Assembly (NCBI GenBank): GCA_045632465.1
Contig: JAZQWS010000180.1
Coordinates: forward strand, 1-59,013
Direction: 5' to 3'
Source of the DNA: Eubacteriales bacterium
GTDB lineage: Bacteria > Bacillota > Clostridia > Oscillospirales > CAG-272
Length of the DNA: 59,013 nt
Made by a program: the position numbers and the translations under genes. This document shows, one piece after another, positions 3,949 to 56,167 of this stretch (positions within the stretch are counted from its first letter, which is position 1; each line of letters opens with the position of its first letter). The notes beneath the pieces were generated by a model. That model was not told where the DNA came from, did no database searches, and was given only the letters and a program-made list of their open reading frames with translations.

Positions 3949-6663
3949 ATGAACAACCAAAAAAATCTCATACGAAGCGAAAGCCAATACAATCGCCATT
4001 ACAGCAATATGCGCGGCGTTGATTTCACGGGAGACGGCAGCAACATTCAAAGCGATCGCTTTGCCTACCTTGAAAACATGTATCGCGACTACGAAGGTGA
4101 GGGAGCGGGCATCACCGAGAGCATTCCCGGCTTTCGGAAGCTCTGCTCTCTCGGCGATCCGATCTACGGCATCTTTTCGCAGATCACGCCGAGCGGCCGC
4201 TACATCCTCGTGCACGCAGGCTACCACCTCTATCGCTTTGCATTAAATGCGAGAGATTCGCTCACCGAGCCGCTCACTCCGATCGGCACGCTTTTTCCCG
4301 GAGATACCGCATCCTTTTGCCATGGAAGCTCCATTTATTTTCTGGACGGACAAAGCTTGCATTTCGTGGATGCCGCGGGAAAAATGACCTCCATTACGGG
4401 ATATAAGCAAAAAGAAGTTTACATTCCGACCACATTTTACAACGGAGAGCCGATGGAGCAGCGAAACCTTCTCTCCATTGGATTCAAGGAAATATACAGC
4501 CTTGAGAACCCCTTACGCCTCGCCTACACCTCCGAGGGACTCTACTATGAGGTGGAGAGCGAAATGAATCTGACCTGCCGACTGGCAGGTCGAGGAAGCT
4601 GCCAAGATACGGCGATCTACGTGCCGCAAAAGGTTACCATCGGGCAGGCGACCTATACCGTATGCGCCATTGGCGCAAGAGCCTTCATGAACGATCCAAC
4701 GCTTCAGAAAATGATTCTCCCGAGCGGTGTGCAATGGATCGGAGCCTCCGCCTTTGCAGGATGCGACGCGCTGAAATCCGTCGCTCTTGCCCCCGGAATT
4801 GAAGAGATCGAGGGGAGCGCCTTTGCCTCGTGCGCGGCGCTTGAGACACTTTATCTTCACACCGGCGTTCAGTCCATCGAAGAATCTGCATTCAGCGGAT
4901 GCACGGCGCTGAAGAGCATCCATATTGACGGCGCGGAGGAGGATCTTTCCGCCGCCGTGCTCAACGCACTTCCCCAAGGCGCGACCATGCTCTACAAGTC
5001 GCAATTCAAGGAAAGCCTTTTGCACCTTCCTCTGCACGAGCCAACAGCCACGATAACAAAATTCCGCATTGGCGAAGACACCGCCTCCTACACAACTGTC
5101 CGAGACGGCGATCGCATCACGGCGCTTCGGCTTCCTCTTGCCGACTATACCTCTGTGATCGGCAAGGAGGCGGTGATCGAGGCGGAGATGATCGACAACG
5201 TTGGATACAAAAGCAACGTTGGCTCGGATTTTCTTTATGAAAACCCGAATCATCCCGGCGGCGGCGTTACCGCAATCTTCGGATGCAAGGTTTGCGAGGT
5301 ATTTGACGGGCGCGTTTTTCTCGCAGGAAATCCGGATTTTCCAAACACGGTTTTCTATTCCGCAAGAGATAACACGGGACAGATGAACCCCACGTATTTC
5401 GGAAGCCTGAACTATTTCAACGACGGCATTGCGGGCTTCACCGTTAAATCCCTTCTGGCGGCGGGCGATTCCCTTGCCGTTTTTAAGAGCGGAGACGATG
5501 GCGGCGGAAGTATTTATTACCACACCCCCGAGGCAACCGATTCCTCGCTTCTTCCCAAGATCTATCCCGTGAGCTACGTGCATTCGGGCATGTCTGCCAC
5601 GGCGGGATCTCTTTCCTTTTACGACGATCCCGTTTTTGTTTGCGAGGAGGGGCTCTGCGCGCTGGATAAGAAAAATCTTGCGCTGGAAAGAAGCGTGATC
5701 TGCCGCTCCCACACGGTGAATGCACGCCTGCTCACAGAGGATATGACGCGCGTGCGTTTGGCAAAATGGCGCAACTACCTCGTTTTGCTTGCAGGAGAGC
5801 ACGCCTATCTCGCAGATGCACATCAGACCTACGCGCATCACACGGGCGGCTTTGCCTACGAATGGTATTACCTCTGCGGACTCGGAACATACAAGGACGA
5901 TGCGCCCGTGTATCGCTACGGCTCCGTGCCGCGCGAGGGCTTTATGCTCTACGAGGGACATTACGACGAGCCTACCGCCGAGACCGTTTACAGCATGGCT
6001 TACGATGACGGCGAGACGGTTTACTACGTTATCAAGAACAATGCTATGTATCTCGTTTATCCCTCGGAGGAACGAATGGGCGGCATTTTCTCGCCTGCAC
6101 GATGCGTGATGGGGCTGGAGGAATATCTCTTTTTCGGCACGGAAAGCGGCGACCTCTGCCTTTTTAACAATGACAAGCGCGGCATCGCGCCCGCACAGCT
6201 CACGGAAAGCGACGATTTTGATCCCGAGGAATATCGCCTGCGAAATGGGCGCCGCATCCATTCGGACTATTACGATTTCGACCATCACGCCCCGCGCTAC
6301 GCCCTTGCTACCAAGCGGGACAACTGCGACATTCCGCATCTGACGAAAAACACCGTGAAGGGCTCGCTGGCACTCAAATGCCGCGGCTATACCGCCTCGG
6401 CTCTGCTCCTGGAGGTTGGAACCGATCGCTCGGGTTACCGAGAGGGTGTTTCGCTCCCCGGCTCCACCTTCGGCTTTGACTCGATGGACTTCACGGCCAT
6501 GACCTTGGATAACTCGCCTTATTTCACTCTCTCCTTCAAGGAAAAGGAGAAATGCTGGATCGAAAAGCAGGTTGCCATGTATAGCGAGACCTTCCGCGGT
6601 CCATTTGGTCTTTACAGCGTCAGCTACCGCTATACCGTGCAGGGCGGCATCAAAAATCGCTAA
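3949..6663 (+). CDS. large virion tail/nozzle-like protein with inserted BspA-type leucine-rich repeats
   Basis: 904 aa with TAAGGAGGAGC upstream of the ATG. Four or more ~23-aa repeats of the form 'I..AF..C..L..' occur (IGARAFMNDPTLQKM, IGASAFAGCDALKSV, IEGSAFASCAALETL, IEESAFSGCTALKSI). The flanks are rich in aromatic/Gly beta-strand-like segments. Confidence 0.55.
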   Translation: MNNQKNLIRSESQYNRHYSNMRGVDFTGDGSNIQSDRFAYLENMYRDYEGEGAGITESIPGFRKLCSLGDPIYGIFSQITPSGRYILVHAGYHLYRFALNARDSLTEPLTPIGTLFPGDTASFCHGSSIYFLDGQSLHFVDAAGKMTSITGYKQKEVYIPTTFYNGEPMEQRNLLSIGFKEIYSLENPLRLAYTSEGLYYEVESEMNLTCRLAGRGSCQDTAIYVPQKVTIGQATYTVCAIGARAFMNDPTLQKMILPSGVQWIGASAFAGCDALKSVALAPGIEEIEGSAFASCAALETLYLHTGVQSIEESAFSGCTALKSIHIDGAEEDLSAAVLNALPQGATMLYKSQFKESLLHLPLHEPTATITKFRIGEDTASYTTVRDGDRITALRLPLADYTSVIGKEAVIEAEMIDNVGYKSNVGSDFLYENPNHPGGGVTAIFGCKVCEVFDGRVFLAGNPDFPNTVFYSARDNTGQMNPTYFGSLNYFNDGIAGFTVKSLLAAGDSLAVFKSGDDGGGSIYYHTPEATDSSLLPKIYPVSYVHSGMSATAGSLSFYDDPVFVCEEGLCALDKKNLALERSVICRSHTVNARLLTEDMTRVRLAKWRNYLVLLAGEHAYLADAHQTYAHHTGGFAYEWYYLCGLGTYKDDAPVYRYGSVPREGFMLYEGHYDEPTAETVYSMAYDDGETVYYVIKNNAMYLVYPSEERMGGIFSPARCVMGLEEYLFFGTESGDLCLFNNDKRGIAPAQLTESDDFDPEEYRLRNGRRIHSDYYDFDHHAPRYALATKRDNCDIPHLTKNTVKGSLALKCRGYTASALLLEVGTDRSGYREGVSLPGSTFGFDSMDFTAMTLDNSPYFTLSFKEKEKCWIEKQVAMYSETFRGPFGLYSVSYRYTVQGGIKNR

Positions 6664-34129: not shown

Positions 34130-34193
34130 AGATTGTTTCATCTGTTGGTTTTCAGGGAATACGTTTATCCCCTATGATAAACGATGTTAAAAA

Positions 34194-34240
34194 ATCAGGC
34201 AGCTCAAGTTTTTTGCAACTTGAGCTGCCTGATTTTTATT
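34194..34240. terminator. bidirectional intrinsic terminator
   Basis: 17-bp stem: ATCAGGCAGCTCAAGTT (34194-34210) with AACTTGAGCTGCCTGAT (34217-34233), flanked by an A-run and a T-run. Confidence 0.85.
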
Positions 34241-53392: not shown

Positions 53393-53995
53393 ATGAAAAA
53401 GGCTTCTATGAATCTGCCGAACACACTTTCTCTTTTGCGCTGTGCTTTGGTTCCCATTTTCGTTATCGCTCTGTTTTGGATGCGCGGCATTCCCGTTTGG
53501 GGGCGCGTGATTCCCGCGATCATTTACCTCATCACGGGACTGACGGATATGCTGGATGGCAAGATCGCCAGAAAATACAATCTTGTGACCGATTTCGGAA
53601 AGTTTATCGATCCGCTGGCGGATAAATTCATGGTGCTCGGCTCGCTGATCTCCATTCTCGCGCTCATCCTGATCGAAGGCGAGGTTACGATGGGCCTTGT
53701 TTTCACCGCCGTTGTTCTGATTCTCCTTCTGCGCGAGCTCGGCGTTACCAGCCTGCGCCTCGTGGTTGCGGGAAAGAGCGGCATCGTGGTTGCGGCAAGC
53801 ATGTTCGGCAAGCTCAAAACCGTTTCTCAGATGGTTGGAACGATCGTTATCCTTCTTGAGCCCGTGATCTTCCCCTTCTGCGCGGAAAATCATATCGCGG
53901 CTTACATCTGCATGGGAATTATGGTGATCACAACGGTTGCCTCCGGACTTGACTACATGAAGGCTTACATGCCCTACATTGATACGAATAGCTAA
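53393..53995 (+). CDS. pgsA: CDP-diacylglycerol--glycerol-3-phosphate 3-phosphatidyltransferase
   Basis: CDP-alcohol phosphatidyltransferase motif 'DMLDGKIARKYNLVTDFGKFIDPLADK'. Confidence 0.9.
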   Translation: MKKASMNLPNTLSLLRCALVPIFVIALFWMRGIPVWGRVIPAIIYLITGLTDMLDGKIARKYNLVTDFGKFIDPLADKFMVLGSLISILALILIEGEVTMGLVFTAVVLILLLRELGVTSLRLVVAGKSGIVVAASMFGKLKTVSQMVGTIVILLEPVIFPFCAENHIAAYICMGIMVITTVASGLDYMKAYMPYIDTNS

Positions 53996-54007
53996 AAAAG
54001 CAAAAAA

Positions 54008-54036
54008 GGAGAAGCACGGCGCTTCTCCTTTTTCTA
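54008..54036. terminator. bidirectional intrinsic terminator after pgsA
   Basis: GGAGAAGC (54008-15) pairs with GCTTCTCC (54021-28), flanked by an A-run and TTTTTCT. Confidence 0.8.
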
Positions 54037-54046
54037 TAAAACGGTA

Positions 54047-54075
54047 TTGACACAACAAAAAATATGTGCTATAAT
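54047..54075 (+). promoter_or_regulatory. consensus sigA promoter driving a small non-coding transcript
   Basis: TTGACA (54047-52), 17-nt spacer, TATAAT (54070-75) with TGc extended -10. Confidence 0.65.
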
Positions 54076-54081
54076 ATTAAC

Positions 54082-54172
54082 GGAGAGCACCGATGACGGT
54101 TGCTTCCCAAGCAAATAAGTTAAAGAATTAACCGCTTAGCTTTGGTCGGCAGAGGCGGTTAATTCTTTTTAT
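54082..54172 (+). ncRNA. putative ~90-nt sRNA (candidate type I antitoxin)
   Basis: Bounded by the consensus promoter and a 14-bp terminator (AAAGAATTAACCGC 54122-35 with GCGGTTAATTCTTT 54155-68, plus a T-run). It contains a UUGCUU-CCC-AAGCAA hairpin. The only ORF is 12 codons. It converges on, and overlaps, the 3' end of the minus-strand peptide gene. Confidence 0.45.
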
Positions 54173-54248
54173 TATGATTGTCTATGTAAGTCAGAAGTGC
54201 CATTATGAATCCTGCAAGCAGGAACAGCATTTCCCAAGTAACGAACAT
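54159..54248 (-). CDS. 29-aa hydrophobic peptide, candidate type I toxin (holin-like toxin architecture)
   Basis: MFVTWEMLFLLAGFIMALLTYIDNHNKKN. GGAGG (54261-54257) lies 8 nt upstream of ATG 54248. The product is a single TM helix with a polar, Lys-rich tail. The stop codon lies inside the shared terminator. Confidence 0.5.
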   Translation of the reverse strand: MFVTWEMLFLLAGFIMALLTYIDNHNKKN

Positions 54249-54406
54249 CGGCATCACCTCCCCTCTCGGGAAGGCAAAAAAAGAATCTGCGTTCCCGATC
54301 AAGGGAAGCAACCGCCATTTCGCCAACGTAATGGCACAGCAAGAGCGAAGCTCGTCTGTTTGCCACACGTATATGGTGCTCTACGGGCATCCGAGATGCC
54401 GAATAT

Positions 54407-54435
54407 ATTCTATCATACATTGTGAAAAAAGTCAA
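54407..54435 (-). promoter_or_regulatory. sigA-type promoter of the peptide mRNA (about 150-nt leader)
   Basis: On the minus strand: TTGACT (54435-30), 17-nt spacer, TAGAAT (54412-07) with TGa extended -10. Confidence 0.55.
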
Positions 54436-54613
54436 GAAAAACAGTATGTAAAAGCAACCAATCCTAATAGCGAAATATAAAATATGAATTTTTCCGCTAC
54501 TGTATAGATTTTTTCCATAAAAATAAAAAAATCCCTTGTTTTAGGGGACGGAATATGTTATTCTTAAAATACCGAGAAAAAGCCTCGGAAGTAATCTCTA
54601 AAGGAGAATTTCT

Positions 54614-56167
54614 ATGATCGATTTCAAAGCGGCCGCTCTGGCCGAATATAATAGCGGAGAGCTTACCGCGCATCACGGCGGCGCTTTCGGGCGTCCCTTC
54701 TGGAATGCGAACGCAACGCAGTTTACCTACGTGCCTGCTTTCGGCTTCCCCGTTTCGTCCTTGGCAAAGGAATATCTTTTCACCGCCACCGACTGCGAGG
54801 GAAAGAAGCATTCCTTCGTAGCAAAAAAGCCGACCGAGCTTCTGACGCCCATTTGGGGCGCGATCGCACCGGGTATGGTGACGCTGACGGTTGAGGCTCT
54901 GGATGCGGAGGGCAAGGTGCTTTTTCTGACCGGCGCGCGCACCTTCTATAAATGCACACCTTTTATGGGACGCGATGCCTATCCCGCGCAGAAGCAAAGC
55001 TTTTTGGATTGCGCAAAGAAAGGCTTCCGCTACGTGCTGGAGCAACCCTACGTGCGCCATTTTCTCACGCACGGCACTCCTGATCCGAATTACAGCTACT
55101 ACGTTTATCCCTCCAAGATGATCTCAGCGATCATCAAATCTATGGTGAATCTTTCGAAGATCGATGAGACGGCGGCAGACGAAGCTCTGCAGATCGCAGA
55201 AAAGGCGGCAGACTACCTGCTTTCCATCACCTTCAAAGCGCCGAGCGCCGCGGCAGGTCTGCCCCCGACGTATTATATTGATTTCCGCCCTGCGGGCATT
55301 GGCACCAACTATGTGGCCGATAAGAATCTCGGAAAAATTATGATGATCTACCCTGCGCAGGTGGGAGGCGCCTACCTTTCGCTTGCAAAGGCAAGCGGAA
55401 AGCAGCGCTATTTTGACGAGGCGATCCTGATCGCGGATTACTATGTGAACACGATCACGCCCGAGGGAAGCTGGCCGCTTCTGATCGATGCGGAAAGCGG
55501 AAAGCGCACCACCCAAAATCTCTGCATTCCCGACATGATCATCAGCTTTCTCTTTGACGTTGCAGAGAAAACCGGCGATGCGCGCTATAAGACGGCGGCC
55601 GAGCGGGGACTTGCTTACATCGAAGAAAAGTGTCTTGCGACCTACAACTGGGAAGGACAGTTTGAGGACGTTCACCCCACCGCCAATTACGAAAATCTCA
55701 CTCAATTTAACGCCAAAAACTATATGGGATTTATCACCGAGCATCGAGAGCATACGCCCGAGACGATCGAAACCGCGCTGGATCTCTGCCGCTATATCGA
55801 GGATCAGTTCGTTGTTTGGGGGCCGCACGCCCCCTCCGCAAAATGGGATACGAGCCAATGGCTCTACCCCGCAGGACTTGAGCAATACGGCTGGTATCAT
55901 CCGATCAACGGAAGTACGACGAGTGCAGTGCAGGCCTTTATCTACGCGCACAAGCTGACGAAAAATCCCCTCTTCCTCGAAAAAGCACGCGCCCTTGCCA
56001 CCACGGTTGCGAATCACCAAAACGAGCAGAGCGGCGCAATTCCGACCTATTTCCGAGAGGAAAAATGCGAAGAAACGCTCGAGGATTTTTGGCTGAACTG
56101 CCACACGGGCGCGGCAAGCCAGATGATGTTTATAGCGAAATACGAAGCATCGCTTGAGGAAAAATAA
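54614..56167 (+). CDS. hypothetical protein, possibly beta-sandwich plus alpha/alpha-toroid (glycan-active?) fold
   Basis: 517 aa with AAGGAG as SD. No catalytic motif recognised. The fold guess rests on composition only. Confidence 0.35.
   Translation: MIDFKAAALAEYNSGELTAHHGGAFGRPFWNANATQFTYVPAFGFPVSSLAKEYLFTATDCEGKKHSFVAKKPTELLTPIWGAIAPGMVTLTVEALDAEGKVLFLTGARTFYKCTPFMGRDAYPAQKQSFLDCAKKGFRYVLEQPYVRHFLTHGTPDPNYSYYVYPSKMISAIIKSMVNLSKIDETAADEALQIAEKAADYLLSITFKAPSAAAGLPPTYYIDFRPAGIGTNYVADKNLGKIMMIYPAQVGGAYLSLAKASGKQRYFDEAILIADYYVNTITPEGSWPLLIDAESGKRTTQNLCIPDMIISFLFDVAEKTGDARYKTAAERGLAYIEEKCLATYNWEGQFEDVHPTANYENLTQFNAKNYMGFITEHREHTPETIETALDLCRYIEDQFVVWGPHAPSAKWDTSQWLYPAGLEQYGWYHPINGSTTSAVQAFIYAHKLTKNPLFLEKARALATTVANHQNEQSGAIPTYFREEKCEETLEDFWLNCHTGAASQMMFIAKYEASLEEK

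Follow-up and report, generated by a model that had tools for sequence, protein, structure and literature searches.

The intergenic gap that follows pgsA in a 59,013-nucleotide stretch of DNA (the window) holds two convergent promoters and a very short reading frame, and it raises the question of whether these elements together form a toxin-antitoxin module. Firmicute type I systems such as txpA/RatA and bsrG/SR4 combine a hydrophobic peptide of about 30 aa, a leader that sequesters the Shine-Dalgarno sequence (SD) and a convergent small RNA (sRNA) that overlaps the 3' end of the message. The earlier note on this DNA had proposed a module of this kind, and all of the features it claimed are present where it had placed them (Table 1). 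At the level of sequence the proposal is supported by the conservation of the promoter-bounded unit, by purifying selection on the reading frame and by matches to the Pfam family Hol_Tox. We estimate a probability of about three in four that the cassette is a chromosomal type I toxin-antitoxin system of the TxpA/BsrG (Pfam Hol_Tox) kind with a bsrG/SR4-like build. It would appear to be an unannotated relative, from gut Clostridia, of the Bacillus systems bsrG/SR4 and txpA/RatA, in which the gene for a 29-residue membrane peptide is set against the gene for an antisense RNA of ~90 nt.

Table 1. Features of the cassette downstream of pgsA, in order of position in the window.
Feature	Position	Strand	Remarks
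Predicted full-length toxin mRNA	53996..54400	minus	Start at G54400, 7 nt past the -10 box; 3' end predicted
Bidirectional terminator common with pgsA, just beyond the sRNA promoter	54002..54034	minus	Terminator scan
sRNA promoter TTGACA-17-TATAAT with TGn	54047..54075	plus	12/12 positions in scan; conserved in the family
3' arm of the long-distance helix (region 0), GGGAAGCAACCGUCAUCGGUGCUCUCCG	54081..54108	minus	Fully complementary to the sRNA 5' domain
Predicted antisense sRNA (antitoxin), ~90 nt	54082..54172	plus	5' hairpin, variable linker, terminator hairpin; consensus folds
Hairpin common to both RNAs	54122..54168	both	sRNA terminator on plus; stop-codon stem-loop on minus
29-codon ORF, MFVTWEMLFLLAGFIMALLTYIDNHNKKN	54159..54248 (codons 54248-54162, stop codon 54161-54159)	minus	Coding selection and Hol_Tox similarity
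Region 4, GGGGAGGUGAUGCC, with SD GGAGG at 54261-54257	54250..54263	minus	Invariant
Region 3, UUUGCCUUCCCGA, local anti-SD arm	54266..54278	minus	RNAalifold partner is the SD; single-sequence minimum-energy partner is region 2
Region 2, UCGGGAACGCAGA	54286..54298	minus	Pairs with region 3 or region 1 in minimum-energy and constrained folds
Region 1, UGGCGGUUGCUUCCC, anti-SD and 5' arm part b of the long-distance helix	54303..54317	minus
50-nt leader insertion	54318..54367	minus	Lineage-specific; absent from 36/37 aligned mRNAs
5' arm part a of the long-distance helix, CGUAGAGCACC	54375..54385	minus	Partner is the complement of 54081-54091
5'-terminal hairpin GGCAUC-UCG-GAUGCC	54386..54400	minus	In every copy, with compensatory changes
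Peptide mRNA promoter TTGACT-17-TAGAAT with TGn	54407..54435	minus	10/12 positions in promoter scan

A discrete cassette at unrelated chromosomal sites

In a comparative search of genomes and metagenomes, the stretch between the two convergent promoters recurs as a discrete unit in 44 distinct copies, which are carried by gut Clostridia, Oscillospiraceae, 'Ruminococcus' MAGs and metagenomes; chance matches, four in the genomes and one in the metagenomes, were excluded. The unit measures ~390 bp in the window copy against ~340 bp in most relatives, and homology among the copies stops at the -35 boxes on both sides. The 29-codon frame is intact across relatives and both promoters are conserved, that of the peptide mRNA as TTGAC(T/A)-17-TATAAT at the equivalent site in nearly all 44 copies. 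Promoter-like sites are expected about twice per 2 kb at the scan threshold, and promoters, hairpins and a short ORF might in principle have been assembled by chance in an AT-rich intergenic gap. However, the arrangement is unlikely to be accidental because it is kept in 44 distinct copies elsewhere, with coding selection and covariation, and we regard the chance explanation, to which we give a negligible probability, as already refuted by these comparative data.

The copies occupy unrelated chromosomal sites flanked by housekeeping genes, and several of them form tandem arrays (L030, L021 and L020/L044). Synteny with pgsA is not a trait of the family, as it is found only in the close orthologues L053/L054, with the other copies lying elsewhere. 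For protein-level homologues, the query was a 40-aa sequence that included the translated leader, the peptide alone being too short. An origin from phages or plasmids was rejected because the searches for it were all empty: two specific patterns gave no cassette match in viral contigs, and neither blastn nor tblastn gave a match in phage and plasmid collections, where the low-complexity filter may hide the peptide. The SD-hairpin pattern used alone gave chance matches only, in GC-rich viral contigs. Within the window the copy is the only one, with an sRNA covariance model score of 94 bits at the locus; a second covariance-model match at 34155-34240 proved to be an ordinary terminator.

The cassette represents a family that is widespread among uncultured Oscillospiraceae-like bacteria of gut and rumen; it is missing from Rfam, and its peptide is either skipped by gene callers or wrongly extended through the leader.

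The 29-codon frame and its protein family

The reading frame encodes one transmembrane helix followed by a Lys-rich tail, and it bears the marks of coding selection. The ratio pN/pS is 0.22 in the 29-codon frame compared with 0.65 and 3.7 in the other two frames, and entropy summed for each codon position amounts to 16.7, 4.9 and 24.9. The frame is also intact in copies retrieved with a pattern built on the leader only, from which the peptide was absent, and at the orthologous locus (L053/L054) the ORF differs by two synonymous and no non-synonymous changes. Translation would start 7-9 nt past GGAGG in all copies (8 nt in the window copy, with ATG at 54248), a placement that is fixed by GTG starts and by frameshifts relative to an upstream ATG; the latter, within GGAGGUGAUG, was rejected as the start because it is out of frame in L021 and L048. 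A 69-aa GTG ORF, an 87-aa minus-strand ORF and the plus-strand ORFs were likewise set aside, since coding selection is confined to the 29-codon frame.

The earlier note had likened the peptide to the 'holin-like toxin' class, the annotation given to members of the txpA family (PMC2887945), and the profile searches bear this out for the family. Hol_Tox (PF16935), with a gathering score of 23.3 bits, is matched by 19 of the 21 peptide variants, and four reach that score; the window peptide itself stays below it at 16.1 bits. The family consensus scores 23.3 bits, individual variants 24.0, 28.4 and 29.1 bits, and bridging relatives 45.8 and 49.6 bits, while the TxpA and BsrG query sequences score 31.3 and 34.5 bits. 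Judged by these scores, the putative toxin belongs to a divergent branch of Pfam Hol_Tox, that is, of the TxpA/BsrG family.

A small membrane regulator comparable to the 30-residue competence inhibitor ComI, with its dosage set by the antisense RNA, would also give a two-gene cassette. The NCBIfam ComI model is weakly matched by 18 of the 21 variants, the relative P0043 scores 44 bits where the cut-off is 55, and some candidates of this type, for example YhzE-2, are non-toxic according to Fozo et al. (PMC2887945). However, the Hol_Tox matches are stronger, with some members at the cut-off, and the BsrG query itself matches the ComI model weakly at 20.0 bits (E=0.00043). Heavy sequestration of the SD, tandem multiplication and scattered chromosomal sites are, moreover, typical of type I toxins. 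A ComI-like regulator therefore seems to us distinctly improbable, and a Hol_Tox-type toxin is the reading we retain.

A predicted convergent antisense RNA

Opposite the end of the peptide gene lies a candidate antisense RNA gene with its own promoter and a covarying terminator, the predicted product of which is complementary to the toxin mRNA. Its 5' hairpin, GGAGAGCACCG-AUGA-CGGUUGCUUCC, is conserved across the family. The UUGCUU-CCC-AAGCAA stem-loop described in the earlier note can be drawn in the window copy, but it is specific to that copy, and the fold held in common by the family is the 5' hairpin. The description of the sRNA as lacking a credible ORF holds for the family, in which no conserved ORF was found; a peptide beginning MTVAS was rejected because it ranges in length from 5 to >25 residues and shows conservation only where the RNA is constrained.

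The terminator is formed by a 14-bp inverted repeat, AAAGAATTAACCGC / GCGGTTAATTCTTT, followed by T5 on the plus strand. It spans the toxin stop codon and the last 3-4 codons, keeps a UUGG motif in its loop and contains a covarying stem pair (U-A in 27 sequences, A-U in 6). On the toxin strand the same hairpin is directly followed by UUUAAC, at which some toxin transcripts may end; mRNAs as short as this would be unable to form the long helix described below.

The earlier note had treated a match of the plus-strand RNA to an unrelated RNA family as evidence against its proposal. An Rfam scan of the region and of the whole window returned nothing at gathering score and no RatA- or SR4-like family match. 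The best match, ctRNA_pT181, scored 31 bits against a cut-off of 56 and was rejected as an identity, as it reflects the terminator and its UUGG loop.

A long-distance helix between the leader and the 3' UTR

The predicted toxin mRNA opens with a hairpin in which one compensatory pair is A-U in 17 sequences and G-C in 16. We infer that the full-length mRNA would cross the sRNA gene and run to the terminator common with pgsA; among the relatives, 22 of 39 carry a terminator-like site on that strand no more than 90 nt beyond the start of the sRNA. A long form of the mRNA is required because its 5' and 3' parts form a helix that covaries.

The core of this helix is the 12-mer CGGTTGCTTCCC, which is found on both strands (plus, 54097-54108; minus, 54303-54314) and which the earlier note had suspected of mediating a 5'-3' fold-back. 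This suspicion proved well founded: the 12-mer is part of a covariation-supported 27-bp helix that joins the 5' leader to the 3' UTR through the segments GAGCACC/GGUGCUC and GGUUGCUUCC/GGAAGCAACC. RNAalifold predicts 17 bp of it, and across the full 27 pairs 95% are paired, compared with 36-58% in slid controls. Cells changed on both sides number 19, against 8.0 +/- 2.3 in shuffles, and part a of the helix alone (the 54375..54385 arm) has three pairs with changes on both sides. The mean duplex energy is -18.9 kcal/mol for cognate arms and -15.7 kcal/mol for non-cognate ones (permutation p ~5e-5). One-sided changes are frequent and lead to G-U pairs in the mRNA sense. A mismatch in the helix is found in one clade (L016, L017, L020, L032, L039 and L044) and also in L043.

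The match between the leader and the 5' end of the sRNA gene could also be maintained at the DNA level, by gene conversion between inverted copies instead of selection on an RNA helix. The inverted copies lie ~200-250 bp apart and often share the same variant dinucleotide. Against such conversion, fixed differences persist between them (two G/A positions and an indel of at least 6 nt), and the window's 50-nt insertion has not been copied to the other arm. In the mRNA sense, both these fixed differences and the common polymorphisms read as G-U pairs, present in ~12% of cells; on the opposite strand they would be C-A mismatches. Gene conversion is thus a very improbable source of the pattern, and selection on the RNA helix is preferred.

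Competing pairings at the Shine-Dalgarno sequence

The hairpin by which the earlier note explained sequestration of the SD is present on the minus strand (CCUUCCC at 54274-54268, GAGA, and GGGGAGG at 54263-54257), but it is only one of several competing pairings that could bury the SD. Region 1 is invariant in the family, and in the folds it pairs with the SD when the mRNA is short and with the 3' UTR when it is long. The competing SD helices, including the pairing of region 2, cannot be separated by covariation because regions 1-4 are nearly invariant.

In thermodynamic folding of 37 sequences, on which the predicted direction of the switch is based, the SD is predicted to be sequestered in the leader or short mRNA (unpaired probability 0.002-0.008). 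The median goes from 0.008 for the short mRNA to 0.28 for the long one, and down to 0.004 once the sRNA lies over the 3' UTR. The rise from short to long mRNA is 35-fold, in all 37 sequences, since the arm taken by the 3' UTR is itself an anti-SD; even so, the SD is still paired ~70% of the time in the long form. The long helix is thus predicted to free the SD in part, and an antisense RNA bound to the 3' arm is predicted to lock it again.

These folds suggest the following sequence of events. The strong minus-strand promoter would give rise to an mRNA for the 29-residue peptide, and during synthesis of the leader the upstream anti-SD GGUUGCUUCCC and the local CCUUCCC would bury the SD, so that the nascent mRNA would go untranslated. 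With read-through past the stop-codon hairpin, the 3' UTR would appear and pair with the 5' leader over ~27 bp, a counterpart of helix P1 of bsrG; this pairing would draw the upstream anti-SD off and leave the SD partly open. The convergent promoter, which looks constitutive, would meanwhile supply an sRNA of ~90 nt that is a perfect complement of the 3' UTR and the last codons, and its first contact with the mRNA would probably be made through two complementary hairpin loops. Once the duplex covers the 3' arm of the long helix, the leader would snap back on the SD, and the long sRNA-mRNA duplex would also suit RNase III.

The long helix might, alternatively, be inert and merely stabilising, like the fbi of hok, with the sRNA acting only to trigger decay through the 3' overlap, as RatA does, or pairing with the SD in trans through its C-rich 5' domain in the manner of SprA1AS. 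In type I toxin mRNAs the long-distance interactions known so far hide the SD (PMC8594479), RNAalifold leaves the local CCUUCCC/GGGGAGG hairpin closed even with the long helix, and the largely paired state of the SD in the long form noted above points the same way. A C-rich motif complementary to the SD is found in the sRNA of all copies, and its variants CUCCCC and CCUCCC could pair without mismatch with GGGGAG and GGGAGG, respectively. However, when the 5' domain of the sRNA is paired with the SD region, the duplex (-17.5 kcal/mol) is barely stronger than with shuffled sRNA (-15.3 kcal/mol), which lends weak support to direct masking of the SD by the sRNA in trans. The earlier note had considered extra SD masking by the 12-mer, whose leader copy does act as an anti-SD in the short-mRNA folds. 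The uniform rise in SD accessibility and the anti-SD character of the captured arm further argue against an inert helix, and in bsrG/SR4 there is an experimental example of an SD that is controlled by way of the 3' arm of P1. We therefore consider the inert helix unlikely and favour the switch.

A bolder version of the switch, which we offer as a tentative possibility, is that the 3' UTR is an obligatory translational activator, an anti-anti-SD, with peptide made only from read-through transcripts and the antitoxin acting mainly as a mimic of the leader that out-competes it for the 3' UTR. If so, the toxin level would be set by read-through at the antitoxin's terminator hairpin and by the competition between cis and trans partners, and cleavage of the duplex would leave the mRNA permanently locked. 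Such logic would be opposite to that of hok and more extreme than that of bsrG/SR4.

Relation to characterised type I systems

The closest parallel is bsrG/SR4, in which helix P1, a first loop-loop contact and a longer SD pairing on binding of SR4 have been described (Jahn and Brantl 2013, PMC3834814). Both systems have a small single-helix peptide of Hol_Tox type, a convergent sRNA complementary to the 3' part of the mRNA, and a long 5'-3' helix whose 3' arm is targeted by the antitoxin. In both, the first stem-loop has a basal helix that contains the SD, and the stop codon falls on the 5' side of a stem-loop (SL3 of bsrG) whose loop meets, here by prediction, the loop of the antitoxin terminator. 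Antitoxin binding far downstream tightens SD sequestration in bsrG and is predicted to do so here. The RNAs, however, have no detectable sequence homology, and there is no Rfam match here; the sRNA is ~90 nt rather than 183 nt, and the peptide has 29 residues rather than 38, with the window copy scoring under the Pfam cut-off. A larger switch is predicted here, from a partly open SD to ~20 bp of pairing, where bsrG goes from 4 to 8 bp. Our cassette lies outside any prophage in an uncultured gut Clostridia lineage and is known from sequence alone.

With txpA/RatA of Bacillus subtilis and Enterococcus faecalis, the cassette has in common the toxin family and a convergent layout whose 3' overlap takes in the end of the ORF, the duplex being an expected RNase III substrate; this layout fits the description of TxpA/BsrG systems in PMC8594479. 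RatA leaves the txpA SD helix unchanged (PMC3834814), whereas the sRNA target here is part of the helix that controls the anti-SD. TxpA is also longer, with 59 residues against 29.

As in hok/Sok and AapA/IsoA, the full-length toxin mRNA is predicted to close by pairing of its 5' and 3' ends, and to this extent the hok-like fold-back envisaged in the earlier note is supported. Its effect, however, appears to be the reverse and its form closer to P1 of bsrG: in hok and AapA the fold-back keeps the mRNA inert until 3' trimming activates it, whereas here the pairing captures the anti-SD in silico, raises SD accessibility and is predicted to be activating. The antisense RNAs of those systems bind the 5' part of the mRNA, while here the sRNA complements the 3' UTR, including the 3' arm. 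The fst/RNAII system (par of pAD1) resembles the cassette in its single bidirectional hairpin for two convergent RNAs and in a loop with a U-turn-like motif as the likely site of first contact. The par repeats, however, make the 5' ends complementary, whereas the two 5' ends here are alike in sequence, and the peptide is not Fst-like, with no Fst family match in the family profile searches.

Type I systems have been characterised among Clostridia only in C. difficile, according to a 2019 review (PMC6563280). Covariation in so distant a lineage gives evolutionary support to an antitoxin-targeted 5'-3' helix of the bsrG design. TxpA/BsrG-type systems may therefore generally regulate the SD from the 3' end, and the arrangement would not be a quirk of one Bacillus prophage gene. 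The cassette is small and self-contained and has many natural variants, which makes it convenient for testing long-range RNA switches.

A lineage-specific insertion in the leader

The leader length of about 150 nt given in the earlier note is right for the window copy (152 nt) but atypical of the family, as the leaders of relatives measure ~100 nt. The difference is a 50-nt insertion, also carried by the orthologues L053/L054, which in the predicted fold pairs with itself in an internal loop of the long-distance helix and leaves that helix intact.

Layout of the locus

The earlier note had proposed a type I toxin-antitoxin module downstream of pgsA, and every feature that it listed was found in the gap between pgsA and a 517-aa ORF (Table), including the repetition of the 12-mer CGGTTGCTTCCC. 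The 517-aa ORF has no clear family; its sole match, to pectate lyase TIGR02474, is weak and partial (E=0.0014). Across the whole 59-kb window, scans returned zero tRNA genes and zero Rfam families at gathering score, and a search with a covariance model for the predicted sRNA yielded one copy of the cassette (94 bits), that is, of the peptide gene and the facing sRNA gene with their promoters. A weak match of this model at 34155-34240 was rejected as a second cassette; it is an ordinary terminator, strong, bidirectional and perfectly palindromic (AAAAAATCAGGCAGCTCAAGT ... ACTTGAGCTGCCTGATTTTT). Beyond the cassette, the gap continues upstream of the putative toxin promoter (54440-54613); this part is AT-rich, carries a terminator-like minus-strand hairpin (54588-54572) and changes faster than the cassette between the window and its orthologous locus (L053/L054).

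Features of the gap and its borders
Feature	Position	Strand	Remark
pgsA	53393-53995		TIGR00560; borders gap on one side
517-aa ORF	54614-56167	plus	borders gap on other side
sRNA promoter TTGACA-17-TATAAT with TGn	54047-54075	plus	promoter scan, 12/12
Toxin promoter TTGACT-17-TAGAAT with TGn	54435-54407	minus	promoter scan, 10/12
Hairpin GGCAUC-UCG-GAUGCC	54400-54386	minus	starts directly at predicted transcript start
Hairpin CCUUCCC-GAGA-GGGGAGG	54274-54257	minus	read from sequence
Start codon ATG	54248	minus	8 nt past GGAGG
29-codon ORF MFVTWEMLFLLAGFIMALLTYIDNHNKKN	from ATG 54248	minus	
Stop codon	54161-54159	minus	inside 14-bp inverted repeat 54122-54168
Terminator	54034-54002	minus	found by scan

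Conservation of the cassette

Eight close relatives came from a protein query of 40 aa that spanned the peptide; on their contigs homology spans from -35 box to -35 box within unrelated surroundings. A pattern for the leader only, blind to the peptide, was run on bacterial contigs with one genome per species and gave 30 stretches, 26 of them real, all of these being ruminant and human gut MAGs labelled Clostridia, Oscillospiraceae, 'Ruminococcus' or Eubacteriales; an SD-hairpin pattern added seven loci from metagenomes. The final set holds 44 distinct copies. The earlier note had asked whether the 29 codons and both promoters co-vary in relatives: the promoters occur in nearly all copies, and in those from the leader-only pattern the frame stays open for 27-30 codons. 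Leaders in the family measure about 100 nt, and the sRNA starts 73-76 nt past the stop codon. The copies sit beside housekeeping genes (tyrosyl-tRNA synthetase, glutamine synthetase III, an EF-Tu/EF-G-type translational GTPase, a PLP enzyme), and a search of viral contigs, phages and plasmids found zero copies. The orthologous locus L053/L054, from another sample, is 96% identical to the window copy and lies at the same position after pgsA.

The peptide and its family

Judged by its pattern of substitution, the 29-codon ORF is a gene. Summed entropy at the three codon positions is 16.7, 4.9 and 24.9 (32 distinct 29-codon sequences), and mean pS of 0.58 and mean pN of 0.13 give a pN/pS of 0.22 in the ORF frame, against 0.65 and 3.7 in the other two; between the window and L053/L054 there are two synonymous and no non-synonymous changes. 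GTG is the start codon in three copies; two of these have the ATG that lies upstream, within GGAGGUGAUG, in another reading frame, so the start is fixed at the place first proposed. Automatic gene calling overlooks the 29-residue ORF or, in the related protein records (P0001-P0061), prolongs it on the upstream side, across the leader, to a length of 52-154 residues. TVAVAS and FAFPRGEV were rejected as protein motifs, being translated conserved RNA elements.

Comparison with Pfam Hol_Tox, which the earlier note had recommended, gave a positive result for the family and a borderline one for the window copy: of 21 family variants, 19 match and four reach the cut-off of 23.3 bits (23.3, 24.0, 28.4 and 29.1), whereas the window peptide scores 16.1. 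Sequences that we take to be TxpA and BsrG score 31.3 and 34.5 bits, a lead only. A profile search over 1.84 billion representative proteins yielded 54 clusters, among them bridging clusters that tie the cassette family to canonical Hol_Tox members (MSVHDTISLMILFGSFLLALLTYIDNHNKK, 49.6 bits; METYETLSVLFLGGTFLIALLTYIDRNNKRK, 45.8 bits). Weak matches to ComI and PepG1, two NCBIfam models, are in keeping with this neighbourhood. According to Fozo et al. (PMC2887945), 'holin-like toxins' is the annotation carried by the TxpA family.

A long-distance helix in the predicted toxin mRNA

For 37 full-length mRNAs, RNAalifold predicts a helix between GGUGGCGGUUGCUUCC in the leader and GGAAGCAACCGUCAUC in the 3' UTR, with the repeated 12-mer at its core. 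Next to it, a variable segment adds pairing of GAG-NN-CC to GG-NN-CUC; cognate segments pair at -18.9 kcal/mol and swapped ones at -15.7 (permutation p about 5e-5), and compensatory changes arise independently at five loci (L001, L002, L005, L048, L049). Counting all 27 pairs, the paired share of cells is 95%, falling to 36-58% with the partner slid, and 19 cells are changed on both sides, compared with 8.0 +/- 2.3 in shuffles, of which 0/500 reach 19. Positions at which the arms differ, whether always or often, form G-U pairs when read as mRNA, which argues against both simple gene conversion and a structure on the other strand. The window copy carries a 50-nt leader insertion (54318-54367, minus), absent from relatives, that forms its own hairpin within the helix's internal loop; it also occurs, with three substitutions, in L053/L054 from other samples and is thus not an assembly artefact.

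Such a helix requires the toxin mRNA to extend through the sRNA gene. On the toxin strand, only UUUAAC or similar follows the shared hairpin (54122-54168), and in 22 of 39 copies, the window included, a terminator-like site lies no more than 90 nt beyond the sRNA start. The 3' end is accordingly predicted past the sRNA gene.

The sRNA and predicted control of the SD

Folding predictions suggest a switch. The predicted probability that GGAGG is unpaired is 0.002-0.008 for the leader alone or for a short mRNA that stops behind the shared hairpin, 0.28 (median of 37) for the full-length mRNA, and 0.004 when the sRNA-complementary stretch is blocked. In the short forms GGUUGCUUCCC would pair with the SD region around an inner helix; in the full-length mRNA the 3' UTR would capture this anti-SD, leaving the SD more open. 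Since the SD is predicted to open in the full-length mRNA and to close on blocking, the sRNA may remove the 3' arm and so shut off translation from a distance, and RNase III, too, would be attracted by the perfect duplex, which is about 90 bp long. This direction is a prediction of the models; the helices competing for the SD are invariant and hence outside the reach of covariation. As to the roles first suggested for the 12-mer, a 5'-3' fold-back is supported by covariation. Extra SD masking through direct pairing with the 5' domain of the sRNA is possible, but the duplex is hardly better than that of a shuffled sRNA.

From 5' to 3', the sRNA consists of a hairpin, a linker that varies and a terminator, a three-part plan kept in the family. 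UUGG (columns 61-64 of alignment A4) is present in the terminator loop (54132-54150 in the window) of at least 90% of copies, the remainder of the loop being variable, and fits the YUNR U-turn motif with which antisense RNAs make first contact. The 5'-terminal hairpin of the toxin mRNA covaries (one pair A-U in 17 and G-C in 16 sequences), as does the shared hairpin (U-A in 27, A-U in 6). The recommended Rfam search matched the sRNA to no family, a weak match to ctRNA_pT181 being due to the UUGG loop. An sRNA-encoded peptide was rejected, the short ORF not being conserved.

Relation to known systems

In bsrG mRNA, nt 1-35 and nt 232-262 pair as helix P1, while a short helix contains the SD and SL3 the stop codon; SR4 pairs with the 3' arm of P1, and the SD helix grows from 4 to 8 bp (PMC3834814). 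The design is the same, experimental in bsrG/SR4, whereas for the cassette we infer it. For Gram-positive families T1TAdb describes antisense RNAs on the 3' side, and it also describes long-distance interactions by which the SD is occluded (PMC8594479); a review of Clostridia lists characterised systems for C. difficile alone and TxpA-like matches in silico for C. bolteae alone (PMC6563280). On these grounds, the cassette is by sequence of the TxpA/BsrG type in a new lineage, its RNAs without a described family; Hol_Tox matches and the bsrG-like RNA design support the txpA/RatA- and bsrG/SR4-like assignment made at first reading.

Arrays and divergent copies

One 11-kb contig (L030, 3059-6760) carries five cassettes, four of which repeat head to tail about every 385-405 bp, with nearly identical peptides and varying hairpin loops and linkers. 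With the sRNA covariance model, more divergent cassettes were found adjoining canonical ones in L021 (3450-3790), L020 (2737-2823), L044 (235-321) and L030 (3433-3500). The L021 partner encodes (M)DNVTWNDLIQIAFLVFAILSCFYNKKR, and its anti-SD and SD arms are altered in step (GCUUCC/GGAAG, CCUUCC/GGGAGG). In the L015 copy (5232-5420), which may be decaying, the stop codon has changed from TAA to TAC, a change that lengthens the peptide to 45 residues and also mismatches the shared hairpin.
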